The notes: generated from the letters alone by a model not told the origin. Counted from the stretch's first letter, positions 2,721 to 27,146 are shown. The stretch is DNA of 33,222 nucleotides from an uncultured Rikenellaceae bacterium (GCA_964515985.1 CAZEWS010000006.1:1-33222), one strand, 5' to 3'. Translations and numbers: made by a program.

Positions 2721-4946
2721 ATGGTTACGTCCGTTAATAAAAAATCCTTTGGCGCTGCTCCTGTCTTTTTTACTGCCATTTCCACCATTCTGGGAGCAAT
2801 TCTGTTTCTTCGTTTTGGTTTTGCTGTTGGTACATTAGGATTTTTTGGGGTATTGCTGATCCTTCTGGTAGGACACATGGTCACAATACCCACAGCACTG
2901 GCTTTATCAGAAATTGCCACCAATGAAAAAGTTGAAGGCGGGGGTGAATATTTCATCATTTCCCGCTCATTCGGATTAAACATTGGAGCAACCATCGGGA
3001 TCTCCCTGTTTTTTTCACAGGCAATCAGTGTGGCGTTTTACGTAATTGCCTTCACCGAGGCTTTTGAACCTGTATTCAATTTCTTCAGGGATAGTTTCGA
3101 TATCGTTCTTCCACGACAGGTAGTCAGTCTGCCGGCAATGGCATTATTATCCTTTCTGATATTGAAAAAAGGCGCTAATCTTGGTGTAAAAGCATTGTAT
3201 TTTGTTGTGGTTATTTTATTTATTTCTTTAACGCTGTTTTTTCTCGGTGAGACGGATTATTCCCAAACCAGTGAACCTAAATTCTTTTCAGGCTCATTCC
3301 GCAATATGAGCGATTTTTTTATTGTATTTGCCATTGTTTTTCCGGCATTTACCGGGATGACTGCGGGAGTTGGCCTTTCAGGCGATCTTAAAAACCCCAG
3401 ACGATCAATACCTTTAGGTACCATAACGGCTACTGTTTTAGGAATCATCATTTATCTGTTCATATCCTGGAAACTGAACATTTCTGCCAGTCCGGAAGAC
3501 CTTGTCTCAAACCAGCTCATAATGAGTAAAATTGCTCTTTATGGTGTCATCGTTATTCCTCTTGGATTAGCCGCTTCAACCATATCTTCCGCCCTGGGTT
3601 CTGTTATGGTTGCACCCCGTACACTTCAGGCTTTGGGTGTTGACCGGTCATTTCCATCGTCAAAACTAAATACATTCATTGCCCGTGGTAAGGGTGAAAC
3701 CAACGAACCATTCAACGGTTCAGTCATTACCTGTTTCATTGCATTTATCTTTGTAGCCCTGGGTAGTGTTAATGTTGTTGCAGAGATTATCTCCATGTTT
3801 TTCATGGTGACATACGGTTCCATTTGCCTTATTTCCTTTCTTCATCATTTCGGAGCCGATCCTTCCTACCGGCCTTCTTTTCGTTCAAAATGGTTTATCT
3901 CAATGCTTGGTTTCATTATGTGCACCTGGCTGATGTTTAAGATCAATACCTTTTATGCCCTGGCTGCCTTGGTTTTAATGACATTCATCTATATATTCAT
4001 TCATTATCACCATCGCGAAAGGCAGGGAATTGAAGCTATTTTTCAGGGTACGATGTTCCAAATGAGCCGTAACCTGCAGGTTTTTCTCCAAAAATCAAAG
4101 AAAATTGGCAGCAGCCAAAAGTGGAGACCTTCAGTGATCTGTGTCTCACAGGATTCCTTTGAACGGGATAATGCCTTTAAATTGTTAACATGGATATCCC
4201 ATCGTTACGGCTTTGGCACCTACATTCATTTGATTGAAGGATATTACTCCAGAATTGTTCATCTTGAGGCAGATCAATTGCTAACCCAATTAATCGAGAA
4301 ATCTGAAGATGAAAAATCAAGAGTATTCATGGATACCATAATATCTCCATCCTACACTTCTGCCATCGCCCAGATCATCCAGTTACCAAGCATCTCAGGA
4401 ATGGACAATAATATGATCCTGTTTGAATTTGATAAGGAGAATCCGGTTAACCTGTCTCAAATTATTGATAATTACGCTCTCAGCCGGTCAGGAGATTACG
4501 ATGTTTGTGTTTTGGGAACCTCCGGGAAGAAAATAAATTATAAAAAGGGTATACACGTTTGGATCAGGAGTTACGATTTTGAAAATGCAAATCTAATGAT
4601 CCTTTTAAGCTACATTATCCTGAGCCACCCGGATTGGAAAAAAGGAATGATTAAAATCTTTGATGTTTGTGATGAAGCAGAATTGGATCAGACAAGGAAA
4701 AACCTGGTAAATCTGGTAAGTTCCGGACGCCTTCCTATATCACAAAAGAATATCCGGATTCTGAAAAAAGAAGAAAACGTCCATATCAAAACGCTTATCA
4801 ATGAGAAATCGTCCGAAGCCGGATTAACTCTTTTGGGCTTCCGCGGAGAACAACTGAAGCATGATAAAGAAAGTCTGTTTACCGGTTATGAGAATGTTGG
4901 AAATATTCTCTTTGTTAACGCAAGGCAACAAAAAATAATTAAATGA
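2721..4946 (+). CDS. APC-superfamily permease with SLC12 (cation-chloride cotransporter)-like C-terminal domain
   Basis: About 12 predicted TM helices are followed by a ~300-aa cytoplasmic domain. The track ORF starts at 2523 inside the upstream gene. ATG 2721 (MVTSVNKK; alternative 2712) sits at the upstream stop, 2717-2719. Confidence 0.8.
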   Translation: MVTSVNKKSFGAAPVFFTAISTILGAILFLRFGFAVGTLGFFGVLLILLVGHMVTIPTALALSEIATNEKVEGGGEYFIISRSFGLNIGATIGISLFFSQAISVAFYVIAFTEAFEPVFNFFRDSFDIVLPRQVVSLPAMALLSFLILKKGANLGVKALYFVVVILFISLTLFFLGETDYSQTSEPKFFSGSFRNMSDFFIVFAIVFPAFTGMTAGVGLSGDLKNPRRSIPLGTITATVLGIIIYLFISWKLNISASPEDLVSNQLIMSKIALYGVIVIPLGLAASTISSALGSVMVAPRTLQALGVDRSFPSSKLNTFIARGKGETNEPFNGSVITCFIAFIFVALGSVNVVAEIISMFFMVTYGSICLISFLHHFGADPSYRPSFRSKWFISMLGFIMCTWLMFKINTFYALAALVLMTFIYIFIHYHHRERQGIEAIFQGTMFQMSRNLQVFLQKSKKIGSSQKWRPSVICVSQDSFERDNAFKLLTWISHRYGFGTYIHLIEGYYSRIVHLEADQLLTQLIEKSEDEKSRVFMDTIISPSYTSAIAQIIQLPSISGMDNNMILFEFDKENPVNLSQIIDNYALSRSGDYDVCVLGTSGKKINYKKGIHVWIRSYDFENANLMILLSYIILSHPDWKKGMIKIFDVCDEAELDQTRKNLVNLVSSGRLPISQKNIRILKKEENVHIKTLINEKSSEAGLTLLGFRGEQLKHDKESLFTGYENVGNILFVNARQQKIIK

Positions 4947-9925: not shown

Positions 9926-10885
9926 TCAATATTTATAATTTATACCTTTCAGGTATTCCAAAACATTCTTCTCAATCCGTCTTAATACATTGCTGCTATC
10001 CACCTTTATGAACCTTTCACCTGTGATTTTTTCGTACAGCTCAATGTACCGCTCTGATACCTGGTTAACAAAATCATCTGTCATTTCGGGCACTACCTGC
10101 CCCTCTTTACCCTGAAACCCATGCTTGATTAACCACTCACGCACAAACTCTTTTGAAAGCTGTTTTTGTGGTTCTCCTTTCGCAAGCCTTTCTTCATAAC
10201 CTTCTGAATAAAAATAGCGTGACGAATCCGGGGTATGGATTTCATCAATCAGGAATATCTGGTTTTCTTTTTTACCAAACTCGTATTTCGTATCTACCAG
10301 GATCAATCCTTTTTCTGCAGCCATATCCGTTCCACGCTTAAATAGCTTTTTTGTAAATTCTTCGAGCAATTCGTAATCCTTTTTATTCACTAAGCCCCTG
10401 GCTATTATTTCTTCTTTTGAAATATCTTCATCATGACCCTCTAAGGCTTTGGTGGTTGGCGTGATGATAGGCTCCGGAAACCTCTCGTTTTCCTTCATTC
10501 CATCAGGCAATGGGACTCCACATAGTTTCCTTTTTCCCGATTTATATTCCCTCCAGGCATGCCCCGCCAGATAACCCCTGATCACCATTTCAACCATTAT
10601 GGGTTCCACGTATTGCCCTATGGTAACCATTGGGTCGGGCGACGCAATTTTCCAATTGGGTACGATGTCGTTTGTGGCATCGAGAAATCTTGTGGCAATC
10701 TGGTTCAGTATCTGACCTTTATATGGTATCCCTCTCGGAAGAACAACATCAAATGCTGAAATCCTATCCGATACGATCATTAACAGATATTTGTCCGAAA
10801 TGTTATAAACATCACGAACTTTACCTTTGTAGATACTTTTTTGCCCTGGTAGTCGGTAATTGGTTTTTACTATTGCCTGGTTCAT
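9926..10885 (-). CDS. purC: phosphoribosylaminoimidazole-succinocarboxamide synthase (SAICAR synthetase)
   Basis: [17 protein letters not shown] and [11 protein letters not shown] motifs; about 319 aa, the long-form PurC. Confidence 0.95.
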
Positions 10886-11272
10886 GGTTTTTGGTTCTCG
10901 GTTCCCGGTTCTCAGTTCCCGGTTACAAACACAAAATTCTCCTCCTTAGATAAGGAGCCTGCCCGAAAGAATGAATTCTTTCATTCAGGCGGGGGGAGGT
11001 GGTCTGACCAATTATTTCCTTAATTTTATATCTACCACCCCTCCCCCGTAGGGATGCCTGTGGCACTGTCAAGGAGGGGAATTTTTGTTGGTGCATATAG
11101 CCGAATACAATTCAGCTCTACATCCGTACCTTTCACATTTATCTTTTTCCCCTATGAAATGCTACTTTGCAGCAGTGGCTCTGCCACTATTTCACAGGGT
11201 AAACTTTTGTCTTTTGTATTGTCTCTTAATTCAAATCCCCTTCTCCCCTTCTCCCCTTCTCCTTCACAGACT

Positions 11273-11441: not shown

Positions 11442-11692
11442 GTCTTCTATCAATCAGAAATCCTCAATCAACAATCCGAAATTCAAAATCCCTTAATCCG
11501 AAATCCGCAATTACTCGCTCCCGCAATCCTTCACTCAATCCTGCTCGTGAGACATTCTGTTCGCTTTGCTCTATCCGAAATAAAATGACGAACCGACCGA
11601 CCGACCGAAGTCATTCGGGCAGGGAACTTCGTCCTACTGATCTCTTTTTCATCCCTTTCCCTATTACCCAGCACCTACAATTCTTTCACTTC

Positions 11693-14373: not shown

Positions 14374-15207
14374 TTGAAATATATACTTGTTTTTCTTATC
14401 AGCTTGGTTAGCTTTTTTTGTAATGCCACAGGTTTACATCAAACAGGGATAAAAGATACTGTAGAAGTAAGGTTCGATAAAAAGTATTTTCTTTCCTATC
14501 TCACCGATACACGGGATATTTTTACGGCTCCTGCACATTGGAACAAAAAACAATGGATTTCGGCAGGGATAGTTCTGGGTACAACAGCAATTTTGATAAC
14601 TCAGGATGCAAAAATTCAGGGGTTTGCCCTGGATAACCGAACAGACTTTTTAGATAATGTTGCAAAGTACGGTTTTGAAAGATGGGGTGGCAGCAAAGTT
14701 TATACCAATTATTCACTGATTACCATGGGGGTATTTTATCTACACGGTGAATTATTCGACAATCAAAGAAGTAAAAGGGTTGCATTACTAGGACTGAAAA
14801 CCTTTGTGGTGACAGGGGCTATCCTGTACATTCCTAAATTCATGTTTGGCCGGCACCGGCCATTTGCTGATGATCCATCAGATCCCTATGCATGGGATGG
14901 CCCGTTTTCGGATCATTTGTCATTACCCTCCGGGCACACCACCTCCGTTTTTGCAATTGCATCCATCGTTGCCTCGGAATATAAAGATAAACCGATTGTT
15001 CCTGTTGTTGCTTATTCTATTGCCACCCTTACGGGTATATCGAGGGTATATGAAAACAAACATTGGGGGAGTGATGTTTTAATTGGAGCAGTGTTTGGTT
15101 ATGCTATGGGGAAATTGATCTATAACAAAAACAATTGGGGAATCCATATCAAACCGGTAACTACTCCTGAAGTAACAGGGGTGACTCTTACATTCCCTAT
15201 TCCTTAG
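14374..15207 (+). CDS. PAP2-family phosphatase (membrane)
   Basis: KxxxxxxRP-like, PSGH and SRVYENKHWGSD motifs. TTG start with no in-frame ATG nearby. Confidence 0.8.
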   Translation: MKYILVFLISLVSFFCNATGLHQTGIKDTVEVRFDKKYFLSYLTDTRDIFTAPAHWNKKQWISAGIVLGTTAILITQDAKIQGFALDNRTDFLDNVAKYGFERWGGSKVYTNYSLITMGVFYLHGELFDNQRSKRVALLGLKTFVVTGAILYIPKFMFGRHRPFADDPSDPYAWDGPFSDHLSLPSGHTTSVFAIASIVASEYKDKPIVPVVAYSIATLTGISRVYENKHWGSDVLIGAVFGYAMGKLIYNKNNWGIHIKPVTTPEVTGVTLTFPIP

Positions 15208-15658
15208 CAGGTTCAACCGGTTTATCTTTTTTACTTTTTGTTTCCTCTTTCTCACCCTGTTCTTTCTTTTCCGGTTTAAAATGAACCATTTCCAGTTTCT
15301 GGAGGAGGTTATACCAGTTAAATATCTTTTTCATATCAGATACATAAACCCTGTCTTTGTCATACCCGGGAAAAACCTCTTCAAAATATCTCTTTAGTTC
15401 TTCATTCGGCGATTTAAAATCTATTGTGGGACCACCATTTTCCTTTTCATGGATCTTCTTGAAAATATCAACCAGGGGAACATCTTCTTCCTTTGTAAAT
15501 ATTGCAATTTCCTCAAGAGAACTTACTCTCATGGTTGAGAAAGCACTCATTCGTTTCCTGGTTTCGAGGTTTTCAACGATAATTGCATTTCTGCCCTGGG
15601 ATATTAATTTAAATAAGCCTGGCTTACCACTAATTGCTAAAATATCCTTTAAATCCAT
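15197..15658 (-). CDS. DUF5606-like conserved Bacteroidota protein
   Basis: The N-terminus MDLKDILAISGKPGLFKL is characteristic. The track start 15682 is TTG; ATG 15658 is preferred. Confidence 0.7.
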   Translation of the reverse strand: MDLKDILAISGKPGLFKLISQGRNAIIVENLETRKRMSAFSTMRVSSLEEIAIFTKEEDVPLVDIFKKIHEKENGGPTIDFKSPNEELKRYFEEVFPGYDKDRVYVSDMKKIFNWYNLLQKLEMVHFKPEKKEQGEKEETKSKKDKPVEPAKE

Positions 15659-15682
15659 TTTGAAATCCTTGTTACTATTCAA

Positions 15683-16184
15683 TTATTCATTCGTTTTATC
15701 TTCCATCAAAACAGGAATAATGGAATACTGGAATACTGGAATAATGCCTGCCCTGTCTACCCTGTGAAACAGCAACTACGTTGCTCCTGCTACGCAGGGT
15801 TTCACGGGGTGAACCCTGTGAAATTTTATTATTTCTTTAGGGTTCACCCTGTTGTATTTATTGATTTATCCTACGTGGTAAAATGCGATGTAGGAGCTAT
15901 TTCTACACGGGAATACTGTCCCTACCAAAGGCCTGCCCGAAAGACTTCGGTCGGGCGGGCATCCCTTTGGGAGAATTAGGTGTTAAAGATATCCCTATGG
16001 GAGAGAACACTAAAACACACAAACACGTAAACACATAAATACAATAAAATAACATTTCAATCGCTAATAATTAAATAAAAGTAATTTAATCCAATACTCC
16101 AATATTCCAATATTCCGTAACTTATAATATCCTTCTTTTAACCGATTCGTTACAAATCTTTTTACAACGTTGCTATTATTCAAT
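15683..16184. repeat. mosaic intergenic repeat cluster B
   Basis: Bounded by octamer arrays GGAATAMT x4 (15714-15745) and their inverted counterpart (16091-16116). Contains a three-way-junction element, a GGTGAACCCT hairpin (15808-15848), and a 42-nt module (15870-15911) shared with 25470-25552. Confidence 0.85.
15760..15809. repeat. 50-nt element able to fold as a three-way junction
   Basis: The outer stem 15760-15770/15799-15809 has 11 bp including one G-T. It encloses AGCAAC-TAC-GTTGCT and CCTGC-TAC-GCAGG with no unpaired linker. An inverted copy lies at 25573-25629. Confidence 0.7.
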
Positions 16185-16904
16185 TTACGCTATTTTCCTC
16201 TCTTTCTTAATTTGTTTATATGCCTCATTCACTTTCTGAAACTTTTCTTTAGCCATCTTTTGAAAATCCTCACCAAGATAACTTACTTTATCCGGATGAT
16301 ATTTGATAGCCATATTTCGGTATGCTTTTTTTATTTCCTCATCTGTTGCATTACGATTAATTTCCAGAATTTTATATGCAGAGTCTGTTTTGGGAACAAA
16401 CATGTATTTTATTGAATCTTTATCTTTTGTACTGATTCCAAGGTAGGATGCAATAAGTTCGATGGTTTTAATCTCTTCCGGATGAATAATACCATCTGCT
16501 ATTGAAATCCCAAACAGAAAATGGATTAACTGCAGACGACTTGAATAATCAAGGTTTTGCTTTATTTGTAAGGCAACATCCCGAACTGAAACATGTTGTT
16601 TCAGGATATCGCGCAACATGATTATTGCTTCTTCGGCTGATTCATGCCCAAAGCTTTGCACGAAGTATTTCTTTACATATTCAAGTTCTGTCAGAAGCAC
16701 CTTTCCATCGGCTTTCATAACGGCAGCAACCAGTACAAGTAAACTCATTGCATAAGCACCGGCAGTAGTTCCCCTCTGATCTAAAACAGCCTTATCAGCA
16801 ACGCTTTCAAAAAGCGATCCAAGTGTAAACCCTAATAACCCGCCAATGGGTCCAAAAAAGGCCCACCCTAAACCTCCGCCTATCCATTTGGCAAATTTTC
16901 CCAT
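16185..16904 (-). CDS. TerB-like domain plus C-terminal J-domain protein (DjlA-like co-chaperone)
   Basis: J-domain AYKILEINRNATDEEIKKAYRNMAIKYHPDK at the C-terminus; glycine-rich TM segment at the N-terminus. Confidence 0.8.
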   Translation of the reverse strand: MGKFAKWIGGGLGWAFFGPIGGLLGFTLGSLFESVADKAVLDQRGTTAGAYAMSLLVLVAAVMKADGKVLLTELEYVKKYFVQSFGHESAEEAIIMLRDILKQHVSVRDVALQIKQNLDYSSRLQLIHFLFGISIADGIIHPEEIKTIELIASYLGISTKDKDSIKYMFVPKTDSAYKILEINRNATDEEIKKAYRNMAIKYHPDKVSYLGEDFQKMAKEKFQKVNEAYKQIKKERKIA

Positions 16905-16989
16905 TTATTTAAAATATCAATATTATTAGTAATTATTTTTTATTCGCTCCTCACAATAACCATACCATATTCAAATGCATGTAAAACAG

Positions 16990-17586
16990 TCAGAACAAGG
17001 ATGAATTACCCATAATTGCAGCATGGACTTCCAATATCTGTGGTATTAGCAATTGTTTATCATCATTAATAATGACATAATCAGAACGTTTTATTCTTTC
17101 TTCTTCATCAAGTTGGCTCTTCATCCTGTTACGAACTTCGCTTTCAATAACGTTATCTCTTTCCATCACCCTTTTTATTTTTAACGCTTCAGGAGCAGAG
17201 ATCGTTATAATTTTATCAAGGTGTTTATCAGCACCACTTTCAAAAAGGATCGCAGCTTCTTTTATAACATATGAGTATTCATTATGTAGTTCGGCCCAGC
17301 TAAGGAAATGTTCAAATACAATGGGATGGACAATTAAATTTACTTTCTTTATTTTTTTTTCATCATTAAATATCAAAGTTGCTAATCTTTCCCTGTCTAA
17401 TTTATTCTGCCTGTAAATCTTTTTCCCAAAGATACGGGTCAATTGATCAATGATCTGTGCATTGGATGCCATCAAATTACGGGCTTCGAGATCGGCATGA
17501 TAAACGGGTACACCTATCTTTTTAAAGATTTCACAAACCATGGATTTGCCGCTTCCTATTCCCCCTGTGATTCCAACTTTGAGCAT
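16990..17586 (-). CDS. coaE: dephospho-CoA kinase
   Basis: MLKVGITGGIGSGKS P-loop; about 198 aa. One-nucleotide overlap with the upstream gene (TAATG). Confidence 0.92.
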   Translation of the reverse strand: MLKVGITGGIGSGKSMVCEIFKKIGVPVYHADLEARNLMASNAQIIDQLTRIFGKKIYRQNKLDRERLATLIFNDEKKIKKVNLIVHPIVFEHFLSWAELHNEYSYVIKEAAILFESGADKHLDKIITISAPEALKIKRVMERDNVIESEVRNRMKSQLDEEERIKRSDYVIINDDKQLLIPQILEVHAAIMGNSSLF

Positions 17587-18584
17587 TATTTCTCAATAAT
17601 ATAGTCTACATTCATGGGATGAAAACGAACGGATCTGATATATCCGGGATATTTGACCAGGTCAACCTTTAATTTGTTACTGATTGATTTCTCTAATGAT
17701 TGATAATCAACTACAGCCCTGAACAGGTGGGAAGAAAGTTTATTATAATCACTCAACCCCACCAAAAAAGTAATAGAAACGGTTCGTGGAAATAATTTCA
17801 GGTCTAATGTGTCGGGCACATTTATGGTTTCGATGGGTATATCATATTTTGTTTCAGTGAATTGTTCCACAGGAATATTAACCATTACCTTCCTGGGCGA
17901 AAAGGTGACATTTTTAATATTTTCTATTGGGAGAGTTTTTTTCACTGTTTGGTTAACCTTAACCAGCTTTTGATGCTTTGTTTTCACCTCCGGTAGCGTA
18001 TCCAAAATCACATTCGGACCTAACAATGTAACACTATCAGGTTCAATTGTAATTTTGCCTTTTAACATAAACTGTTTTTCATATTCAATGTCTAAATCAG
18101 CAATAACCAGAACTTTTTTACTGACTATTTCATCAAATTCAAACATTAAGGTATCAGGAGAGATTTCAATAATCTGGATATCTGATTGCAATTGACGGGA
18201 AATTCGACTCTTGATATTTGAGGTAAGCAGATAGAAACCGGTAGAATTTTCATTTGTTATCTTAAATAAGGAGGAAGAATTATAGTTTATAATCAGGGGT
18301 ACCTTTGGGTTGCTTAACTTGTATTTCAATAAGGTATAACCAGGTGCCTTAACGATAAGATTTAGCCTGGTGGGCAAATCCTTTACCAATACTTTATGTT
18401 TTGGCAGGTTTGTATACTTTACAGGATAAGATATAAGCGAGGTAAAATTTTTATTTAACTCATTTAGAAACCATAGAATGGTTGAAACAAGAAGAAAAAC
18501 TAAAAACACAATAATTCTCTGGTCAAGCTTATATCTTTTACCTCGAATGTATTGCCGTAAATTCCAACCTTTTTGCTTTTTCAA
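17586..18584 (-). CDS. YbbR-like domain protein
   Basis: An N-terminal TM segment followed by repeated beta-rich YbbR-type modules. It occupies the conserved position between yajC and coaE in Bacteroidota. Confidence 0.65.
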   Translation of the reverse strand: MKKQKGWNLRQYIRGKRYKLDQRIIVFLVFLLVSTILWFLNELNKNFTSLISYPVKYTNLPKHKVLVKDLPTRLNLIVKAPGYTLLKYKLSNPKVPLIINYNSSSLFKITNENSTGFYLLTSNIKSRISRQLQSDIQIIEISPDTLMFEFDEIVSKKVLVIADLDIEYEKQFMLKGKITIEPDSVTLLGPNVILDTLPEVKTKHQKLVKVNQTVKKTLPIENIKNVTFSPRKVMVNIPVEQFTETKYDIPIETINVPDTLDLKLFPRTVSITFLVGLSDYNKLSSHLFRAVVDYQSLEKSISNKLKVDLVKYPGYIRSVRFHPMNVDYIIEK

Positions 18585-18650
18585 GACATGGTTTTTAAAA
18601 TCCCGAAAAACACGGTAGATCGTATCCCTTACCTGATATAAAAATCTATA

Positions 18651-18980
18651 TCAGAATTTCTTTTGAGCAGGAAGATCACTGGAATCTTTGAGGATTGCAC
18701 TTTTATCAATCTTTAATCTGACATTATCGCCTACGTCAACAACGATAACATTTTCTTTTATATCGGTAATTTTACCATATATACCACCTGTAGTAATAAC
18801 TTTATCTCCCTTTTTGACAGACGCTCTGAACGATCTCAGGTCTTTTTGTTTTTTCATCTGGGGACGAATCATAAAAAAATAAAAAACCAGAATAATTAAA
18901 ATCAGGGGTAAAAAAGTCATGATAGGGTTCTGGTCCTCCGACGCAGGTGTCATCATCAAAATGTAAACCAAGTTACTCAT
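18651..18980 (-). CDS. yajC: preprotein translocase subunit YajC
   Basis: A single TM segment, then RPQMKKQK...[14 protein letters not shown]..., the typical YajC signature. Confidence 0.9.
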
Positions 18981-19209
18981 CTTAATTCAATTAAATTAAA
19001 TTTTACTTTTTATTCTATTCTATTATTTCAGCAGATGTAGTTAAACTTTGCACAGGTGTATCGCTAGTTAGAGTCTGTCCATAAAGTCTCGAAATTTCTG
19101 TAGATTTGAATATTGAACAAGGAATGCTGATTTCTGATTTACAATGTATCCTTTTTGAATTTGCAAAGTAATAATAATTTTATTACACAACCAAGATATT
19201 GTCAGTCTT

Positions 19210-20163
19210 TCAACGATTCTCACCAATGAGACCCCTTCCACGTTTTACAATTTTCTTTTCCTGCTTCAGCTCATGAATGATTTTATCTAAAATCCCATTG
19301 ATAAAATTACTGCTTTTTGAAGTGCTGTAATATTTCGAAATTTCAATATACTCGTTAAAACTTACTTTGGTTGGAATTTCCGGAAATTCTATTATCTCAG
19401 CTATTGCCAATTGCATTACCAAAATATCCATAAAAGCAATACGGTCTATTTCCCAGTTTTGTGTATGCCGATCAATTAAAAGCCTGTATTCTTCCCCGTT
19501 TAAAATTGTTTTGCTAAATAATTGTTTTACAAAATATTTATCGTCTTCATTTTTATACATTCCCATTAATGGCATATTTTCATCCGAATCATCCTGAAAT
19601 CTTTTAATGGTTTTAATGACCATATTAATTACAAATTCCATATCATCGTTCCAGTAGATGCTCTGTTCCTCCAGGTTCTGGAATAATTCTTCTGACTGGA
19701 TAATCAAGTTTGAGTATATTTGGATTATTATCTTTCTGTCAGCCGTGTAAGAGTCTTCCTTGCTTTCAAGATATGATATATAATCTTCTGAATCGATTAT
19801 TTTTAAATAAAGATTTTTGATTAATTCAGGATAATTCTTCCAGTTTAATTTATTTAAGGAGAGAAAATTATTTAAATGCTTGTTAACCCTGAACTGCTTT
19901 ATTAACAGATTATTAATAAACCTTGTGTTCGGATTTAGATCTTCAAGTGTAGGTATCTTTTTTCCCCTGGAAAGTTCGATCCGCTCGTTGGCATAATCGA
20001 TAATTTCCACCAGAAGTAAAAACAGGTAGTGATATAATTCATAGGCCTTGTTTATACTAAAGAATAATTGCTTTTCTGAATGGGCAATTGATTCACTATT
20101 TGACTTATAATGAGCATAAAGGGTCTGTAATATCTTAACCCGGAGTAACCTTCTGCTTAACAT
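19210..20163 (-). CDS. nusB: transcription antitermination factor NusB (long Bacteroidota form)
   Basis: N-terminal RRLLRVKILQTLYA and C-terminal NFINGILDKI motifs. Confidence 0.85.
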   Translation of the reverse strand: MLSRRLLRVKILQTLYAHYKSNSESIAHSEKQLFFSINKAYELYHYLFLLLVEIIDYANERIELSRGKKIPTLEDLNPNTRFINNLLIKQFRVNKHLNNFLSLNKLNWKNYPELIKNLYLKIIDSEDYISYLESKEDSYTADRKIIIQIYSNLIIQSEELFQNLEEQSIYWNDDMEFVINMVIKTIKRFQDDSDENMPLMGMYKNEDDKYFVKQLFSKTILNGEEYRLLIDRHTQNWEIDRIAFMDILVMQLAIAEIIEFPEIPTKVSFNEYIEISKYYSTSKSSNFINGILDKIIHELKQEKKIVKRGRGLIGENR

Positions 20164-20196
20164 ATTTAAAAGAACTGGAATACATAGTAGTTAATG

Positions 20197-20204
20197 CAAA
20201 TGTA
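20197..20204 (-). promoter_or_regulatory. candidate -7 box TAcaTTTG for the nusB operon
   Basis: Reverse complement of caaatgta, 34 nt upstream of ATG 20163. Confidence 0.4.
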
Positions 20205-20292
20205 ATTATTTTTTCAAGTTGAGCAAAAATGGTCTTATTTACTATTTTCACGTTTTATTAGGGTTCTGTTACTTAAATAAAAAATTATTTTA

Positions 20293-20300
20293 TACATTTG
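20293..20300 (+). promoter_or_regulatory. candidate -7 box TAcaTTTG
   Basis: 33 nt upstream of ATG 20333. Confidence 0.4.
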
Positions 20301-20332
20301 ACCGTCAAATTATTCTAACTACATAAAAATCA

Positions 20333-20740
20333 ATGAAGATGGAAGATGAATTAGAAAAAAAGGAAGAACTTGAAAAAAGCGAAGAATCTGAGAAATTCGA
20401 AAGGGAAGAAATTTTCTCAAGAGCAGTAAGAGCTGGAAAAAGGACTTATTTCTTCGATGTAAAAGCAACCCGAAGAAATGACTTATACCTGACCATTACT
20501 GAAAGTAAAAAACGTTTTAATCGTGATGGTAGGTTCTACTATGAGAAGCACAAAATCTTTCTGTACAAAGAAGATTTTGACAAATTTTCAGAAGGTTTAT
20601 CTGAAGTGGTAAATTTCATCAAATCATCTAAAAATGAACCTATTGAAAATGAAGAAATAAAAAAGCCGGATGCAGACGATACATTAGTTGAAAACTATAC
20701 CAATGTAGAGTTTGAAGACCTGGAAGAAAAGAAGGAATAA
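20333..20740 (+). CDS. DUF3276 (PUR-alpha-like nucleic-acid-binding) protein
   Basis: RAGKRTYFFDVKATRRNDLYLTITESKK and HKIFLYKEDFDKF are typical of the family. Confidence 0.75.
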   Translation: MKMEDELEKKEELEKSEESEKFEREEIFSRAVRAGKRTYFFDVKATRRNDLYLTITESKKRFNRDGRFYYEKHKIFLYKEDFDKFSEGLSEVVNFIKSSKNEPIENEEIKKPDADDTLVENYTNVEFEDLEEKKE

Positions 20741-20742
20741 AT

Positions 20743-20772
20743 AAAAAAAGTCCCGGTTGGGGCTTTTTTTTT
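20743..20772 (+). terminator. rho-independent terminator
   Basis: AAAAAAGTCCC-GGTT-GGGGCTTTTTTTTT starts 3 nt after the stop codon. Confidence 0.65.
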
Positions 20773-20820
20773 GTACATCTTTTTATGATTAAGGCATAAC
20801 ATTTTTAAAAAATTGCTACA

Positions 20821-21118
20821 ATGAACCAGATTGTATACAAGCCAATCGGGTATATTCAAACTCCATTCCAACGACCTGAGAATATGCCGATACAGCCAAG
20901 TGCCGCCGAAGGAACTACAGGTAAAGTGGTTCTGTATCATGATTTTACAGCAGGATTAAAAGATCTGGAAGGTTTTTCACATGCTTATCTAATCTATCAT
21001 TTACATTATTAAACCCTTCATTCCTAATTTTGACAATCCGGAGAAAGTCAAAACCGGATGGTTCGCTAAAGTAAGTTCAAATTTTCCCAAACGAAAATCA
21101 GATAACCGGTTTAACTAA
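20821..21118 (+). pseudogene. trmO: tRNA methyltransferase TrmO/TsaA (YaeB family) remnant with internal deletion and frameshift
   Basis: N-terminal YKPIGYIQTPF...GKVVLYHDF..LEGFSHAYLIYHLH stops at 21012. A C-terminal-type KPFIPNFDNPEKVKTGWF... continues in the +1 frame to the stop at 21116-21118. The central RSPxRPNPIG region is absent. Confidence 0.65.
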
Positions 21119-21620
21119 GTAAAGCTGCAAGCTTTAAGTTACAAGCTAATTTCGACTCTTCCGTTCCCGGTTCTCAGTTCCCGGTTCCTGGTTCCTTTTT
21201 TCTTGTTTCTACTTGGTTCTCTACACTACGCGCTTTGTGCTTTTTCCAGCCGAATACAATTCGGCTCTATATTTCGGTCTAAGCTCCCCACCACATCTGC
21301 GTACTGCTTACTGCCTACTTCTGCTGCAACTACTAACTCTTCTCTCCAATCAGTATTCACTTTTTCCCCTGTTAAATGCTACTTCGCAGCAGTGCCCGCC
21401 TGACTTATTCCTGCCCGATTCAGGCCCTGTGAAATCGAATATTATTTCACTGGGCAGGCGGGTTCGTCATTCGAATAATCGTCAATCATTTATCAAACAC
21501 CCGGCACCCAGTATCCCAGCCCGTACCAATCGGCACGTTCGGGCGGGCAGCACCTTGCACCTAACACCCCAGTGAAATATGCTCCTTCGTCGCATTTCAC
21601 GGGGCAGGCCCAAAATCTTC
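21119..21620. repeat. mosaic intergenic repeat cluster C
   Basis: The 24-mer at 21163-21186 is identical to 10901-10924. Also contains the GCCGAATACAATTCGGC module (21249-21272), a nested hairpin (21395-21462) and a CCCCAGTGAAAT hairpin (21567-21604). Confidence 0.85.
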
Positions 21621-21914
21621 CTAACCGTATTTCTCCATTTTTTCCTCAATCGTTACATCCTGGTTTATTCTGCTATGGATCTTTAAATTAGCCAAAATCT
21701 CCGATGCACCGTTTTCGAAACAGTTTACCTGAACTTCTTTTATAAGTTCCATGATTTGGTCATAGTCTCCCTCTAGTACCGTTTCAAAAGGACAAACCAT
21801 GAATTTTATGCCAGACTCCTGAATAACCTGGATTGCGGCATCAATTATTTTATACGAATGAATGTTTTTAGCTGTAGGTAAAATTTGGATCGCTACGTTC
21901 ACTTTATTTTTCAT
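21621..21914 (-). CDS. MTH1187/YkoF-family thiamine-binding protein (DUF77)
   Basis: VNVAIQILP...CPFETVLEG pattern. The track start 21974 lies upstream of a TAtaTTTG box, so ATG 21914 is preferred. Confidence 0.75.
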   Translation of the reverse strand: MKNKVNVAIQILPTAKNIHSYKIIDAAIQVIQESGIKFMVCPFETVLEGDYDQIMELIKEVQVNCFENGASEILANLKIHSRINQDVTIEEKMEKYG

Positions 21915-21962
21915 AATGATTCGTTTAAATTGAAATAAGTTTATGGGTTTCGGGTTTATTTT

Positions 21963-21970
21963 CAAATATA
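21963..21970 (-). promoter_or_regulatory. candidate -7 box TAtaTTTG
   Basis: Reverse complement of caaatata, 49 nt upstream of ATG 21914. Confidence 0.35.
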
Positions 21971-22227
21971 GCATCGTCCAGCTTTCATTCTTCTAACTCC
22001 ACTCATTATTCTTTCCTGTAAATATAAAAAAATCCTAAAAATTTTCACTATGCTAATCTAAAGGAAGGAGTTCTTCGGACAAACTTTTTTAACATAAACA
22101 CATGAATACATTCACACACAAAAACTTCTTAAACAATTTAGCAGTTTAGCCATTTATCAAACAACCAGTATCCAGCAACTTCCCCTTCATCTTCTCAACC
22201 TAAATCTCAGCCTTTCCTTCACAGACT

Positions 22228-22253
22228 CTGCCAGGTTTTCCAAACTCTGGCAG
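22228..22253. repeat. CTGCCAG-GTTT-TCC-AAAC-T-CTGGCAG hairpin module
   Basis: Seen directly. This is the third copy with a compensatory inner stem. Confidence 0.8.
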
Positions 22254-22400
22254 GTCTTTTTCAAGTCGAATACAATTCGGCTCTACATCCGCACCTTTCA
22301 CTTTTTACTTTTATCTTTTCTCGTTCAGATCCCTCCTTTTGTCGGGATAAGTTCGACTATTGTTTTTCGCTACACCAGTTTGCGAAAATCAAGTCTCACT

Positions 22401-22408
22401 TACTTTTG
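22401..22408 (+). promoter_or_regulatory. candidate -7 box TActTTTG embedded in repeat motif TACTTTTGCC
   Basis: 129 nt upstream of feoAB. The same 10-mer occurs at 26537 and 26641. Confidence 0.3.
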
Positions 22409-22536
22409 CCTTTGATATTTTTTCTTTATCTTTATTTATTCTATATAAAAATAATAATGAATTGGCATTGCAAGAACAACAAATAAATTGTAGGTATGCC
22501 CTGCCTGAAAAGTGTATAGAAAATTATTTATAATCC

Positions 22537-25047
22537 ATGAATCTTTCGCAATTAAAAACAAACGAAGAAGGAGTCATTACAAAAGTCAGGGGAAGAGGTG
22601 CCTTTAGAAAAAGAATCACCGAGATGGGATTTATTAAGGGCAAGAAGGTAAAAGTGATAAAAAACGCCCCGCTAAAAGACCCCATTGAATACAGTCTTAT
22701 GGGTTATGAAATCTCATTAAGAAGAAGTGAAGCTCAGTTGATTGAGGTAATAACTGAGAAGGAGGCTACTGGTCTTTTTAACAAAAGATTTAATGGAGTA
22801 GAGGCTCAGGCAGGATTAGTTCAGTCAGCTAAAATCAAGGGGAAAAATATAAACGTTGCCCTTGTTGGAAATCCAAATTCCGGAAAAACAACACTTTTTA
22901 ATTATGCTTCACATTCCAGGGAACATGTTGGAAATTACGGTGGTGTTACTGTCGGTTCAAAAGCTGCAAAATTCCGACAGGAAGGATACACCTTCAATGT
23001 TGTAGATTTACCAGGCACATACTCTCTTTCAGCCTACTCACCCGAGGAACTATATGTTCGGAAGTTTATCTTTGGCGAAACACCAGACGTTTTAATCAAT
23101 ATTGTTGACGCTTCAAATCTGGAAAGGAACTTATACCTTACCACGCAATTAATTGATATGGATGTGAAGGTAATTATCGCACTGAATATGTATGATGAAC
23201 TCCAAAAACGAGGCGACCAATTTGACTATGAATCACTGGGAAAAATGATGGGGATACCTATTGTTCCCACAATCAGTTCAAAAGGACATGGTATTAAGGA
23301 ATTATTTAAAAAAGTAATTGATGTTTATGAAGACAAGGAACCGCTTGTCCGTCACATACATATAAATTATGGAAAGGAAGTTGAAAAATCCTTGAAGATC
23401 ATTCAAGACGAGATATGGAAGAATAAAAGCCTGACCGATATGGTTTCTTCCAGATTTTATGCACTGAAGCTTATCGAGAAAGATAAATCAGCTCACTTTT
23501 CACTTTCAAGATGGCCGAATTATAACGAGATAAAGGGAATTGCCGAGAATGAAATCGAAAGACTGGAAAAAATGTTTCATGAGGATAGCGAGACATTAAT
23601 AACCGATGCCAAATATGGATTTATCTCAGGTGCTTTGAAAGAAACCCTGATAAGTGGCCAACATAAACGAAATACAACTGACATTATTGATGCTTTTATT
23701 ACACACAAACTTTTCGGATTTCCCATATTCTTTCTCCTCATTTTTATTATGTTCTTTGCTACATTCGAATTAGGTCAGTATCCTATGAATTGGTTGGATC
23801 AATCCATTGTTTTATTTTCGGGATGGTTACAATCAATTATACCTGCCGGAGCGCTGAAAGATCTTTTAATCAATGGAATTATTGGAGGAGTCGGCAGTGT
23901 AATTGTTTTTCTTCCGAATATTTTAATCCTGTTTTTCTTCATTTCGTTGATGGAAGATACCGGCTACATGGCACGTGCTGCCTTTATTATGGATAAAATC
24001 ATGCATAAAATCGGGTTACACGGACGGTCATTTATTCCCTTGATAATGGGTTTTGGTTGTAATGTCCCGGCCATTATGGCTACAAGAACCATAGAGAACA
24101 GAAATAATCGCCTGGTAACCATGCTGATTAACCCTTTTATGTCATGTAGTGCCAGACTACCCGTATATATTCTGGTCATTGGAGCATTCTTCCCTAAGCA
24201 TCCGGGACTGGTTTTATTTATTATATATCTGATTGGCATCTTCATAGCAGCTACGGTGGCAAAAATATTAAAGAAAACTTTCTTTCGAACAGAGGAAATC
24301 CCTTTTGTTATGGAATTGCCATCATACCGCGTACCTACCCTAAAATCAACACTAAAGCATATGTGGTACAAAGGTGAACAATACCTGAAAAAAATGGGAG
24401 GGGTTATATTAATTGCATCCATTTTGATTTGGGCATTGGGATATTATCCAAAAAACGTCGCCTATTCCATCGACTACGATACCACTATTAGCACTCATGA
24501 AAGCCAGTATAACCAAGTATTAGAAAGCGTTAAGTTTGAAAACCCTGACAGATATTACCAAGTTTTAAAGGAAAAAAACGGAGTCATTCGTTCTCTCTTA
24601 CTGGCAAAAGAATCTGAAAAACAGGAAAAATCATACATAGGACAAATAGGTCAGTTCATAAAACCGGTACTCAAACCTCTTGGATTTGACTGGAAAATGG
24701 GTGTTAGCCTGTTAACAGGGATTGCCGCTAAAGAAGTTGTTGTAAGTACAATGGGTGTTTTATACCAGGCTGGAGCTGATATTGATGAAAAATCAGAAAC
24801 GCTAATTGGAAAAATAAGAGATCAAACATACACAAACGGGATTCGCTCCGGTGAAAAAGTTTATACTCCCGTTATCGCTTTCGGGTTTCTGATGTTTATA
24901 TTAATTTACTTCCCGTGTGTGGCAGTTATTGTTGCCATTAAAAAAGAATCAGGTAGCTGGAAATGGGCTTTATTTACCATATTTTATACCACATCACTTG
25001 CCTGGTTTGTTGCATTTGTTGTTTATCAGATAGGAAGTTTATTTTAA
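22537..25047 (+). CDS. feoB: ferrous iron transporter, FeoA-FeoB fusion
   Basis: N-terminal FeoA SH3-like domain (GVITKVRG...GFIKGKKVKVIK), G-domain VALVGNPNSGKTTLFN and DLPG, and a multi-TM C-terminal region. Confidence 0.95.
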   Translation: MNLSQLKTNEEGVITKVRGRGAFRKRITEMGFIKGKKVKVIKNAPLKDPIEYSLMGYEISLRRSEAQLIEVITEKEATGLFNKRFNGVEAQAGLVQSAKIKGKNINVALVGNPNSGKTTLFNYASHSREHVGNYGGVTVGSKAAKFRQEGYTFNVVDLPGTYSLSAYSPEELYVRKFIFGETPDVLINIVDASNLERNLYLTTQLIDMDVKVIIALNMYDELQKRGDQFDYESLGKMMGIPIVPTISSKGHGIKELFKKVIDVYEDKEPLVRHIHINYGKEVEKSLKIIQDEIWKNKSLTDMVSSRFYALKLIEKDKSAHFSLSRWPNYNEIKGIAENEIERLEKMFHEDSETLITDAKYGFISGALKETLISGQHKRNTTDIIDAFITHKLFGFPIFFLLIFIMFFATFELGQYPMNWLDQSIVLFSGWLQSIIPAGALKDLLINGIIGGVGSVIVFLPNILILFFFISLMEDTGYMARAAFIMDKIMHKIGLHGRSFIPLIMGFGCNVPAIMATRTIENRNNRLVTMLINPFMSCSARLPVYILVIGAFFPKHPGLVLFIIYLIGIFIAATVAKILKKTFFRTEEIPFVMELPSYRVPTLKSTLKHMWYKGEQYLKKMGGVILIASILIWALGYYPKNVAYSIDYDTTISTHESQYNQVLESVKFENPDRYYQVLKEKNGVIRSLLLAKESEKQEKSYIGQIGQFIKPVLKPLGFDWKMGVSLLTGIAAKEVVVSTMGVLYQAGADIDEKSETLIGKIRDQTYTNGIRSGEKVYTPVIAFGFLMFILIYFPCVAVIVAIKKESGSWKWALFTIFYTTSLAWFVAFVVYQIGSLF

Positions 25048-25104
25048 TTGAACCAAATACTAAAAAAAAAGACTCTTAAAAACTGAATACTAACGAAAAC
25101 TTCA

Positions 25105-25257
25105 ATGATACAGGAAATTATTGCTTTAACCATAGTACTGTTTGCAGGTATTTATACAATATACCAAACAATCCGATTTTTCTATCCGGCAAAGTCCGTA
25201 AAAGTAAACAGGGGTTGCGGATACTCATGCAGCGGATGTCCGGTTAAATCAAACTAA
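25105..25257 (+). CDS. FeoB-associated Cys-rich membrane peptide (50 aa)
   Basis: Not in the ORF track. MIQEIIALTIVLFAGIYTIYQTIRFFYPAKSVKVNRGCGYSCSGCPVKSN has one TM helix and a CxxxCxxC tail, and starts 57 nt after feoB. Confidence 0.65.
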   Translation: MIQEIIALTIVLFAGIYTIYQTIRFFYPAKSVKVNRGCGYSCSGCPVKSN

Positions 25258-25462
25258 GGCCTTATAAAAAATATTTTCTCTGTTCCAGTCCATGGAACGA
25301 TTTCTCCCGATTGAAAAAAGTATAGCCAGTTAATAAATGTGCCGTAACTGCTATTGTTTATAAGGAGTAAAGCTTTGCTTACGGCGTAATTATCCGGAGG
25401 TTAAATCAGGAATTTCCTTATTCCTAAATACCAACATTCTACCAAAGGTATCTCTTCAGGAC

Positions 25463-25629
25463 ATTATTCCCCTGTAGAAAAAGCTCCTACCCTGATGAAA
25501 TGTTTTCGTACCTCAAATTTCATAGGGCAAGCGTCGCATTTTACCCCGTAGGATAATTATTCCAACGGGGTGAACCCTGCGCAGCAGGAGCAACCTAGTT
25601 GCTGTTTCACAGGGTAGACAGGGTAGGCA
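25463..25629. repeat. composite repeat, an inverted counterpart of 15745-15917
   Basis: It comprises ATTATTCC, the 42-nt module interrupted by a 43-nt hairpin (25491-25533), and a 57-nt segment (25573-25629) that matches the reverse complement of 15745-15801 at 54/57. Confidence 0.8.
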
Positions 25630-25731
25630 TTCTTCCATTTTGCAATCATTCCCTGAATTTCCTAAAATTGTCTATATTTGAAAATTGAGATTTGAAATTT
25701 ATTTGTTTTTTGAATATTGTTTTTTGGTGCT

Positions 25732-25739
25732 TATTTTTG
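25732..25739 (+). promoter_or_regulatory. candidate -7 box TAttTTTG
   Basis: 68 nt upstream of ATG 25807. Confidence 0.35.
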
Positions 25740-25806
25740 AATGATTAAGACTTGATAGACAAGCACTGGTTATACAGGTTCATGTAAACTTCGAATAATA
25801 CTTACT

Positions 25807-26286
25807 ATGCTTGATTTTTTCTTATTAGTTTTCGGAATTATCTTTATGATCATCGGATTATTGGGTTGCATTCTTCCCATAATCCCCGGTCCGCCTCTCA
25901 GTTTTATCGGATTATTGCTGCTTCATTTCACAAAATTTGGTGACTTCACCTTTTCATTCCTGGTTATTATGGGATTTGTAGCTCTTGCCGTTACAATTAT
26001 CGATTACATAGTCCCCGTTTGGGGAACAAAAAAATTCGGAGGGTCAAAGGCAGGAATATGGGGAGCAACCATCGGACTGGTTCTTGGAATTTTCTTTTTT
26101 CCACCCATAGGAATTATCCTGGGACCTTTGACCGGAGCGATCATTGCCGAATCCATTACGGGAAAGGAATTTAATAAATCATTTATAGCCGGCCTTGGCT
26201 CTCTTTTCGGATTCTTAATGGGAGTTGTCATTAAACTAATCGCTTCATTTGTGATGACCTATTACTTTGTAGTAGAACTGTTTTGA
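25807..26286 (+). CDS. DUF456-family membrane protein
   Basis: Four TM helices and the N-terminal GCILPIIPGPPLSFIG motif typical of DUF456. Confidence 0.7.
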   Translation: MLDFFLLVFGIIFMIIGLLGCILPIIPGPPLSFIGLLLLHFTKFGDFTFSFLVIMGFVALAVTIIDYIVPVWGTKKFGGSKAGIWGATIGLVLGIFFFPPIGIILGPLTGAIIAESITGKEFNKSFIAGLGSLFGFLMGVVIKLIASFVMTYYFVVELF

Positions 26287-26371
26287 AAAACCTTACCGTT
26301 AACCGCGCTTGTTATTCAGAGATTAATATCATTAGGTCGTTATTAGCTCGCTTCGCTCGCGTAATTCGATA

Positions 26372-26459
26372 GTCATACAATGGTCATACAATAGTCATAC
26401 AATAGTCATACAATGGTCATACAATGGTCATACGATGGTCATATAGTAGTCATACGATA
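26372..26459 (+). repeat. tandem array 1: 8 x 11 bp, consensus GTCATACAATG
   Basis: Units counted by hand, with 0-3 substitutions per unit. Confidence 0.95.
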
Positions 26460-26558
26460 GTTTACCCTGTGAAATTGCGAAGCAATATTTCATGGGGTCA
26501 TTCAGTAGTAATCTGGTAGTATTACTTTGTACTTTTTACTTTTGCCTTTACTTGATTG

Positions 26559-26635
26559 GTCATACAATGGTCAAACAATAGTCAAACAATGGTCATTCAG
26601 TTGTCATTAGGTTGTAATTAGGTAGTGATTAGGTA
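26559..26635 (+). repeat. tandem array 2: 7 x 11 bp, degenerating from GTCATACAATG to GTGATTAGGTA
   Basis: Counted by hand. Preceded by TTACTTGATTG, as is array 3. Confidence 0.9.
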
Positions 26636-26729
26636 GTTTTTACTTTTGCCTTTTCACCCTGTGAAATACGAAGTAATTTTGCTTGCAAAATTATTTCACT
26701 GGGTAAACTTTTGTCTTTTTACTTGATTG

Positions 26730-26795
26730 GTCATACGATGGTCATACGATTGTCATACAGTAGTCATACGATGGTCATACAGTAGTCATTCAATA
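26730..26795 (+). repeat. tandem array 3: 6 x 11 bp, consensus GTCATACGATG
   Basis: Counted by hand. Preceded by TTACTTGATTG. Confidence 0.95.
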
Positions 26796-26850
26796 GTCTT
26801 TAAAAGTTTGAAAATTGTTGGGTATTAATTAACTAAAAAATCAGATTTCG

Positions 26851-26895
26851 ATGCAATTAGAAGAATTAAAAGTATATCAACTTTCCATGACGTGA
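26851..26895 (+). pseudogene. 14-codon stump resembling the N-terminus of a four-helix-bundle (23S rRNA IVS / Avd-like) protein
   Basis: MQLEELKVYQLSMT* follows the (D/E)L.V(W/Y)Q.(S/A)M pattern I recall for this family's N-termini. It runs straight into the right-hand repeat array. Confidence 0.35.
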
Positions 26896-27146
26896 GCGAA
26901 GCGAGCTTATGACAATAAATGACAGCGAAGGCGCAGCCTGAGCGAATGACACGAACGAAGTGAGTATATGACGGCGCAGCCAAATGACAATTGAATGACG
27001 CCCGCAGGGCTAATTACACGAGCGAAGCGAGTGAATGACGCGAACGCAGTGAGCTAATGACTACTGAATGACAGCCGAGCGCAGCGAGGCAAATGACACG
27101 AGCGAAGCGAGTGAATGACGCAAGGCACGCAGTGCCAAGCAAATTA
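26896..27146 (+). repeat. ATGAC-punctuated GC-rich array rich in GNA-triloop mini-hairpins
   Basis: ATGAC occurs 12 times in 26887-27119. The 26-mer ACACGAGCGAAGCGAGTGAATGACGC occurs twice, at 27016 and 27096. GCGAAGC occurs three times, alongside several GCA-loop hairpins. Confidence 0.9.

Follow-up and report, generated by a model that had tools for sequence, protein, structure and literature searches.

A 33,222-nt stretch of DNA from an uncultured Rikenellaceae bacterium (GCA_964515985.1 CAZEWS010000006.1:1-33222), referred to here as the window, carries a short intergenic sequence at 15760-15809 that an earlier note described as foldable into a three-way junction and as recurring in inverted orientation 9.7 kb away. 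This locus raises three questions: whether the junction is a real property of the sequence, whether the second copy shares it, and what kind of element would need such a shape.

Copy 1 and its decayed inverted counterpart

The sequence at 15760-15809 (copy 1) reads CCCTGTGAAAC / AGCAAC-TAC-GTTGCT / CCTGC-TAC-GCAGG / GTTTCACGGGG. ViennaRNA reproduced exactly the junction proposed in the earlier note, with no spare nucleotides: the minimum-energy fold consists of an 11-bp stem containing one G-T pair and two triloop hairpins, and no base is left unpaired at the junction. Folded as RNA, the + strand reached -28 kcal/mol (z -5.82, with none of 200 shuffles equally good) and the - strand -24 kcal/mol (z -5.28), while the two strands folded as DNA gave -17.7 (z -6.77) and -16.6 (z -7.17). 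Copy 1 thus forms the junction on each strand, as RNA and as DNA (z -5.3 to -7.2), and is more stable than its shuffled controls.

Sequence comparison agreed that 15745-15801 recurs inverted at 25573-25629 with 54 of 57 positions identical, and showed that the inverted repeat is longer than first noted, spanning 80 nt (15722-15801 / 25573-25652; Table 1). The three differences between the copies are a G/A in the 5' flank and the triloop changes TAC/TAG and TAC/TGC, and the longest exact stretch common to both is 28 nt. The claim that the internal differences lie in the triloops and leave the stems untouched holds for both inner hairpins of copy 2, which are intact, but not for the outer stem, whose 3' arm is mostly lost. 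Copy 2 lacks the GTTTCACGGGG arm, and beyond GCAGGG a different hairpin repeat begins (TTCACCCCGTTGG...CCTACGGGGTAAA), of which TTCACCCCGTTGG is the 5' arm. The family covariance model introduced below matched copy 2 over model positions 5-46 only, with a bulge and at 32.8 bits compared to 68.6 bits for copy 1. Folded alone, copy 2 gave a weak junction whose outer stem was 5 bp long (-10.6, z -2.3), and in 121 nt of context its best fold was not the junction. Having lost most of its 3' outer arm, copy 2 therefore represents a decayed element instead of a second junction. Furthermore, a contig assembled from sequencing run X5 carries the copy 1 bases within copy 2 at 25595 and 25624 (loop-1 and flank positions), indicating that those two differences are strain-level polymorphisms.

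BLAST segments revealed that both copies belong to two versions of a composite built from several small repeat modules. Two 43-nt indels separate the composites, and a module with family-type arms is involved in each (15802-15844 on the copy 1 side, 25491-25533 on the copy 2 side); these coordinates come from the BLAST segments, as a global MAFFT alignment of the composites did not resolve them. The hairpin repeat that replaces the 3' arm of copy 2 has a decayed counterpart at 15843-15880, and the 17-nt interior of the short member at 25490-25527 occurs seven times in the genome.

Table 1. Members of the repeat family and associated repeat features located in the window.
Position	Strand	Feature	Evidence
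11150-11199	-	Second full T-shaped element, of another subfamily (AGTGGC-AGA-GCCACT / GCTGC-AAA-GTAGC)	Family model, 65.1 bits, E 3.5e-17
15722-15801	+	Left arm of the 80-nt inverted repeat: 8-mer repeats, GCCTGCCCTGTCTA and the element minus its 3' arm	Pair at 88% (70/80)
15760-15809	+	Full T-shaped element (copy 1): 11-bp outer stem with 6-bp and 5-bp hairpins	Sequence; folds; family model, 68.6 bits, E 3.3e-18
15814-15842	+	Degenerate short member: arms CCCTGTGAAA / TTTCTTTAGGG, 8-nt interior, linked to copy 1 by TGAA	Sequence; X5 and X6 contigs rejoin at 15813
21425-21454	+	Short member: outer stem, 10-nt interior	Family model, 25.7-26.6 bits
21568-21604	+	Short member with family outer stem	Family model, 28.7 bits
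25490-25527	+	Short member: arms CCCTGATGAAA / TTTCATAGGG, 17-nt interior; in the copy 2 composite, not in the copy 1 composite	BLAST; family model
25540-25575	-	Different hairpin repeat CACCCCGTTGG...CCTACGGGGT replacing the 3' arm of copy 2	Sequence; BLAST segments
25566-25614	-	Copy 2, truncated: 5' arm and both inner hairpins (loops TAG, TGC), 3' arm shrunk to G-TTCAC	Sequence; model match 25570-25610; fold
26465-26497	+	One-hairpin member: outer stem and TTGC-GAA-GCAA	Family model, 26.8 bits
26657-26703	-	Member with family outer stem and one long inner hairpin	Family model, 32.5 bits

Several other repeats and genes were recorded in the window. A tandem 8-nt repeat, GGAATACT, lies directly upstream of copy 1 (15715-15740), and long arrays of the same 8-mer occur elsewhere in the source genome (C111:3415-3651, C14:5782-5874, C121:3546-3609). 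A small hairpin repeat of 27 nt, CCTGCCCGAAAGACTTCGGTCGGGCGG, is found at 11597-11623 and, about 120 nt from copy 1, at 15932-15958, the two being 93% complementary. Tandem 7-nt repeats (GGTTCCC/GGTTCTC) occupy 10884-10924 and 21160-21200; the latter array is 21 nt (three units) longer in runs X5 and X6 and hence length polymorphic. At 26326-26832, tandem 11-nt repeats (GGTCATACAAT-like, 19 registered copies) form three blocks interleaved with family-type hairpins. The gene at 16185-16904, named djlA in the earlier note, does encode a TerB and a DnaJ domain; at 92 bits, however, it falls short of the 162-bit NCBIfam DjlA threshold, and we refer to it as djlA-like. A single 836-aa ORF (22537-25047) encodes a fusion of FeoA and FeoB.

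A conserved three-way junction with covarying inner stems

The source genome (G000; 3.72 Mb in 426 contigs, 37.9% G+C, 77% complete) abounds in small repeats. Together, CCCTGTGAAA (a 10-mer) and its complement account for 215 occurrences compared to about 5 expected, showing that the repeat matches are far beyond chance. A covariance model built from 54 elements returned at least 145 matches in G000, corresponding to at least 112 distinct places (58 of 50 nt and 33 of 48 nt); these counts are lower bounds, given that 150 of 2720 first-look candidates were scored. About 14 of the copies are within 9 substitutions of copy 1 and form the same subfamily.

The superfamily has in common an outer stem, CCCTGTGAAA/TTTCACAGGG, whose arms are the sole part conserved in sequence (18 invariant alignment columns). 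The interiors are mostly 30 or 28 nt long and hold two hairpins of varied sequence, such as AGTGGC-AAA-GCCACT/GCTGC-GAA-GCAGC, AAAGGC-GAA-GCCTTT/ACTGC-AAA-GCAGT and AAATC-GAA-GATTT/ATTGC-GAA-GCAAT; one-hairpin and short-interior versions are present as well. The same hairpins recur in different combinations, and hairpin modules appear to be shuffled among elements. Furthermore, a second outer-stem variant, CCCTGTG(T/G)AAT / ATTCCACAGGG, with two hairpins of its own, is nested inside another member at C31:6601-6695 of G000 and was also found in C176 and C344.

To assess the inner structure, we assembled 106 distinct 50-mers from G000 and all fetched loci, chosen by outer-stem pattern alone. With the layout fixed at 6+5 bp, 92 of these 106 elements formed at least 10 of the 11 inner pairs, and 70 of them formed all 11, as opposed to 2 of 2120 shuffled interiors and 4 of 5000 random ones. 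Each inner pair occurs as several standard pair types in this set. Covariation was quantified in an alignment of 54 rows that had been pre-filtered for pairing, which inflates its percentage of paired positions. All 11 inner pairs have changed on both sides in this alignment, with 185 double-change cells compared to a shuffle mean of 51.6. The covariation score was 0.435 compared to 0.143 for shuffles, none of 500 reaching the observed value, and it fell to 0.113 or less when pairing partners were slid by 1-3 columns. The outer stem hardly varies and thus carries no covariation signal; what stands out is that very constancy. The copy census and covariation test proposed in the earlier note thus gave at least 112 places in the genome and compensatory changes in every inner-stem pair. 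The structural reading is supported, far more strongly than could be seen from the window, as the three-way junction is the architecture conserved across the whole family.

The 14 G000 copies of the copy 1 subfamily give a finer view. They carry 11 loop substitutions at 6 loop sites, and 22 changed pairs at 22 pair positions, of which 5 are still paired, 1 is compensatory (CTTGC/GCAAG in C19) and 16 are broken; by our reading of the table, 6 of these 16 are traceable to the replaced arm of copy 2. Stem-disrupting substitutions in other copies, which the earlier note would have counted against the fold, thus do occur, but loops change several times faster than stems: some copies are decaying while the family keeps the fold.

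Placement, turnover and distribution

Although ORFs of at least 120 aa make up 81% of G000, 82 of 90 elements lie outside them, with 4 fully contained in such an ORF and 4 overlapping one in part. Tandem, convergent and divergent spacers hold 36, 9 and 9 elements, respectively, compared to a background of 1486, 293 and 280, revealing no bias. Element-bearing spacers have a median length of 444 nt compared to 150 nt overall. In all 52 distinct well-formed elements of G000, both triloops are of the form R-N-A on the same strand and are closed by a C-G pair; loop position 1 is G in 78 and A in 24 of 104 loops, and position 3 is A in 101 of 104. This strand polarity is not universal: in other genomes, the loops of 23 of 82 elements belong to opposite classes, a pattern that flipping or exchange of single hairpin modules would produce. 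The orientation of the purine-loop strand relative to neighboring genes in tandem spacers likewise showed no bias (21 sense, 15 antisense).

Comparison between close relatives revealed that elements come and go as discrete units. One element present in G002 is missing from C111 of G000 as a clean 57-nt indel, the flanks being otherwise 85-96% identical. Elements of G001 sit inside two other repeat families of which the G000 copies have none, the differences being indels of 52 nt (TTTA plus a 48-nt element) and of about 60 nt. Furthermore, G001 has a 351-nt multi-module block, with a member of the copy 1 subfamily in it, that C319 of G000 lacks at the corresponding position. Flanks form 4-bp extensions of the stem (TTTA/TAAA, TTCA/TGAA or CTTG/CAAG), giving a unit of about 58 nt. 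No consistent target-site duplication was seen in three empty/filled comparisons (G002/G000 and G001/G000).

At the copy 1 locus itself, the spacer between the DUF5606/DUF6852 gene and the djlA-like gene consists of about 520 nt of stacked repeats in the window (15683-16184), compared to about 75 nt of unrelated sequence in G002, which belongs to the same genus (G002:C205:4831-4897). The flanks are 95-96% identical to the window, and the short spacer is too diverged from it to define insertion boundaries. In contigs from two independent runs (X5 and X6), position 15758 is joined straight to 15813, so that the 54 nt holding copy 1 and TGAA are missing. This skip is flanked by 11-nt direct repeats, which are typical of slippage deletion, and it may therefore represent a loss. 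More generally, these presence/absence polymorphisms could be losses and not gains.

The exact pattern was found in 9 of 41 related genomes, G000 included. Both remaining members of the genus carry it, as do 8 of the 24 further genomes of the family, and none of 16 genomes from other families of the same order does. A reversed-pattern control returned no match among the 41 genomes. An even sample of the phylum gave no exact pattern in 400 other genomes, indicating that the family is patchy and not a general trait of Bacteroidota. A scan of prokaryotes with one genome per species yielded at least 109 loci, from about 50 assemblies among the matches listed. Bacteroidota dominate these listed loci (Rikenellaceae, Prolixibacteraceae, Mariniphaga, Draconibacterium, Maribellus, Roseimarinus sediminis DSM 28824, Saprospiraceae and Lewinellaceae), and the remainder come from five Cloacimonadota bins and from Patescibacteria, Saccharibacteria, Parcubacteria, Ignavibacteriaceae, Balneolaceae, Spirochaetales, Bdellovibrionales and Gammaproteobacteria bins. 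Among 25 listed matches that were inspected, those outside the phylum mostly had the full architecture and the usual flanks. The matches in Roseburia and Lachnospiraceae looked like something else upon inspection. Low-copy carriers have 1-4 copies each, with inner hairpins of their own. The cross-phylum matches are mostly in metagenome bins, where wrong binning is possible, as it is for matches resting on a single contig. Runs holding this stretch of DNA are subsurface and sediment metagenomes; the sole RNA run found (X20) contained 0.04 of its sampled words. In two genomes of about 1 Mb each (G443 and G444), members lie at 4032-4081 of locus L200 (G443:C6) and 4055-4106 of locus L203 (G444:C27), in the rplK-rplA and rpsF-ssb spacers, suggesting that they are tolerated inside highly expressed operons.

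Interpretation and relation to known repeats

Taken together, the architecture is conserved with covarying inner stems, and the copies are intergenic, turn over as discrete units and decay individually. The family is probably a non-autonomous, REP/MITE-like mobile (selfish) repeat that acts as folded single-stranded DNA. The propagating unit would be the T-shaped three-way junction of 48-50 nt, or about 58 nt with the 4-bp stem extension. Only well-formed junctions would propagate, and individual copies decay after insertion, as copy 2 did. The element would be copied or moved as folded single-stranded DNA, and a putative structure-specific enzyme would read the invariant outer stem together with the junction geometry (arms of 5-6 bp, 3-nt loops), in a manner that may be likened to that of HUH/Y1 enzymes on REP hairpins. 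Four observations favor folded single-stranded DNA over RNA: the stem is invariant across phyla while arms of fixed size covary freely, both strands fold equally well, there is no relation to the direction of transcription, and the triloops are of the C-(R-N-A)-G type. The same observations are suggestive of an enzyme of this kind. C-GNA-G is a very stable DNA minihairpin motif.

A structured RNA element acting after transcription, such as a terminator, an mRNA stabilizer, a processing site or a small RNA, would also account for the very stable fold, the strong covariation, the intergenic location and the presence of members in the rplK/rplA and rpsF/ssb operon spacers of the 1-Mb genomes. We nevertheless consider this unlikely. 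The purine-loop strand is sense in 21 and antisense in 15 tandem spacers, divergent spacers are not depleted, the flanks are TAAA or TGAA with no T/U tract, and position within co-transcribed ribosomal operons argues against strong termination. In addition, presence varies between near-identical strains, some copies are decayed, and Rfam returned no match at E values up to 1 on either strand of window positions 15000-27500. C-G-closed triloops are, moreover, more typical of DNA hairpins than GNRA tetraloops are.

The confinement of sequence conservation to the outer arms (18 invariant columns) could instead suggest a double-stranded inverted-repeat site for a dimeric DNA-binding protein, the interior being a mere spacer, and the arms TGTGA...TCACA resemble CRP/FNR-type half-sites. 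This reading is very improbable: a mere spacer would need no pairing, whereas in 92 of 106 interiors at least 10 of 11 pairs are preserved within the fixed 6+5 bp layout. Interior length also peaks at 28 and 30 nt, and the half-sites are spaced quite unlike those of any known operator.

We consider very unlikely the suggestion in the earlier note that the inverted copies are a recombination substrate inverting the 9.7-kb djlA-feoAB segment. Although they are inverted and have 80 nt at 88% in common, their 28-nt exact run barely reaches the length that homologous recombination requires, the family comprises more than 100 copies dispersed in both orientations, and the three relatives compared are collinear over the junctions covered, with the same gene order and strand at the left junction in G002, G006 and G007 and at the right junction in G006 and G007. 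Logan contigs of the runs showed no opposite-strand joint between 15.8 and 25.6 kb among the joints listed, although a rare inversion could go unseen in contigs. Two of these joints, 15746/22258 (opposite strands) and 15808/25063, are uninformative, as their shorter sides measure 27-33 nt and fall inside repeats.

As candidate partners we looked at RAYTs, through genes of the Y1 family (PF01797). These occur in 34 of the 41 related genomes, with or without the element, with 8 matches in G000; their distribution does not track the element, and a RAYT link was rejected on the genes examined. Four of five distant carriers have PF01797 matches, and in the fifth, G443 (about 1.0 Mb), none was found. 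Six of the 8 matches in G000 have no family motif within 1.5 kb; the C31 Y1 gene, with family motifs 470-570 nt upstream of it, has other small hairpins on its flanks, and the match in C70 has family motifs about 600 and 860 nt away. The Y1 genes in G001:C262 and G006:C374 are framed by simple REPs of their own, with the T element outside. Thus, no Y1 gene framed by T elements was seen among those inspected, where T elements are merely close by within shared clusters of repeats; G000 being 77% complete, a gene could have been missed. Searching G000 for ORF-carrying units between outer arms 70-2500 nt apart recovered only ordinary genes or nested repeats, and Pfam analysis of 33 ORFs beside 11 elements in five low-copy genomes found unrelated housekeeping genes and no common family.

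The family is apparently undescribed in the sources searched. Literature searches with motif strings returned only primers and unrelated papers among the matches listed, and topic searches outside subscription journals returned no description of the element. The REP tables of PMC6006769, as far as accessible, contain none of CCCTGTG, CACAGGG and TGTGAAA, and the accessible text of a 2025 REP survey (PMC12306157) makes no mention of junction or branched forms. One hairpin repeat of the window, the CACGAGCG-AAG-CGAGTG type (at least 5 copies at 26338-26366 and 26887-27121), does resemble a REP of Bacteroidetes RAYT subclass 2.6 in the available part of the PMC6006769 supplement, and may be the true RAYT-linked REP of this genome.

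A close parallel is with REP/BIME/REPIN sequences and their RAYT (TnpA-REP, Y1 HUH), which, in the portions of PMC3116915, PMC6006769 and PMC3733652 available, are, like the family, short, high-copy, intergenic palindromes that cluster and nest. Both behave as sequence populations in which intact copies dominate, old copies are decayed and positions vary between relatives, and both probably act as folded single-stranded DNA. As far as the same portions go, REPs are single hairpins, sometimes bulged, with a GT[AG]G-like guide tetranucleotide at the foot, and flank a RAYT gene; the Y1/RAYT survey includes 'double foot' and 'atypical' Bacteroidetes forms among the single hairpins (PMC6006769). 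The family differs by its branched three-way junction and by a foot, CCCTG (CCCTGTG), that is preceded by TTTA, TTCA or CTTG and has no GT[AG]G guide.

The small dispersed repeats of Nostoc and other cyanobacteria, reportedly described by Elhai et al. in 2008 as having 21-27 nt and one hairpin, are likewise tiny mobile repeats with a conserved outer sequence and a variable hairpin interior that insert into other repeats, in genomes rich in tandem heptamers. By this description they are set apart from the family, which has 48-50 nt, two inner hairpins and a distribution in Bacteroidota and other phyla. Rickettsia palindromic elements, Correia, ERIC and RUP repeats measure 100-150 nt or more, and many such MITE-like repeats have terminal inverted repeats and target duplications or insert in frame into genes. 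They resemble the family in being non-autonomous, structured, dispersed and present or absent between relatives, whereas the family is mostly outside ORFs (82 of 90) and shows no target duplication. For a MITE one would look for a target-site duplication and an autonomous relative with matching ends and a transposase, and neither was found (three comparisons; G000 and 5 genomes). Integron attC sites, which form same-orientation arrays around gene cassettes beside an integrase, do not fit either: copies stand singly or in repeat clusters between housekeeping genes, in both orientations and on many contigs.

In shape, a close analogue is the inverted terminal repeat of AAV, a T-shaped structure of about 125 nt (145 nt with the D sequence) that is terminal on a linear viral genome and serves its replication; it is read by the HUH nuclease Rep, for which the stem is a sequence-specific site and the arms provide geometry. 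Both consist of a long stem around two small palindromic arms with 3-nt loops in single-stranded DNA. The likeness is one of analogy: the family elements are 50 nt long, chromosomal and dispersed, and there is no homology. By the same analogy, it is possible, though on balance doubtful, that the T elements are substrates of a candidate DNA-junction-specific enzyme (an unusual HUH/Y1 clade or another nuclease) that would recognize stem and arms much as parvoviral Rep does in its T-shaped terminal repeat, and that horizontal transfer has carried the pair among Bacteroidota, Cloacimonadota, Patescibacteria and others of sediments and the subsurface. If this were true, horizontal spread of the element-enzyme pair would explain the identical 10-bp stem across phyla.

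The family has practical consequences for the genomes that carry it. It inflates intergenic spacers, from about 75 to about 520 nt at the copy 1 locus, and breaks metagenome assemblies, many copies being at contig ends, and its members may be misread as regulatory RNAs or sites of inversion. Nothing links the element to a function for the neighboring djlA-like or DUF5606 genes. The cultured strain R. sediminis DSM 28824 carries a copy, which makes the family testable at the bench. REP-type repeats are understood as simple hairpins read by RAYTs, whereas this family needs a perfect three-way junction and bears no RAYT signature. It therefore points to a mode of recognition, and probably to an enzyme, not yet described for bacterial repeats.
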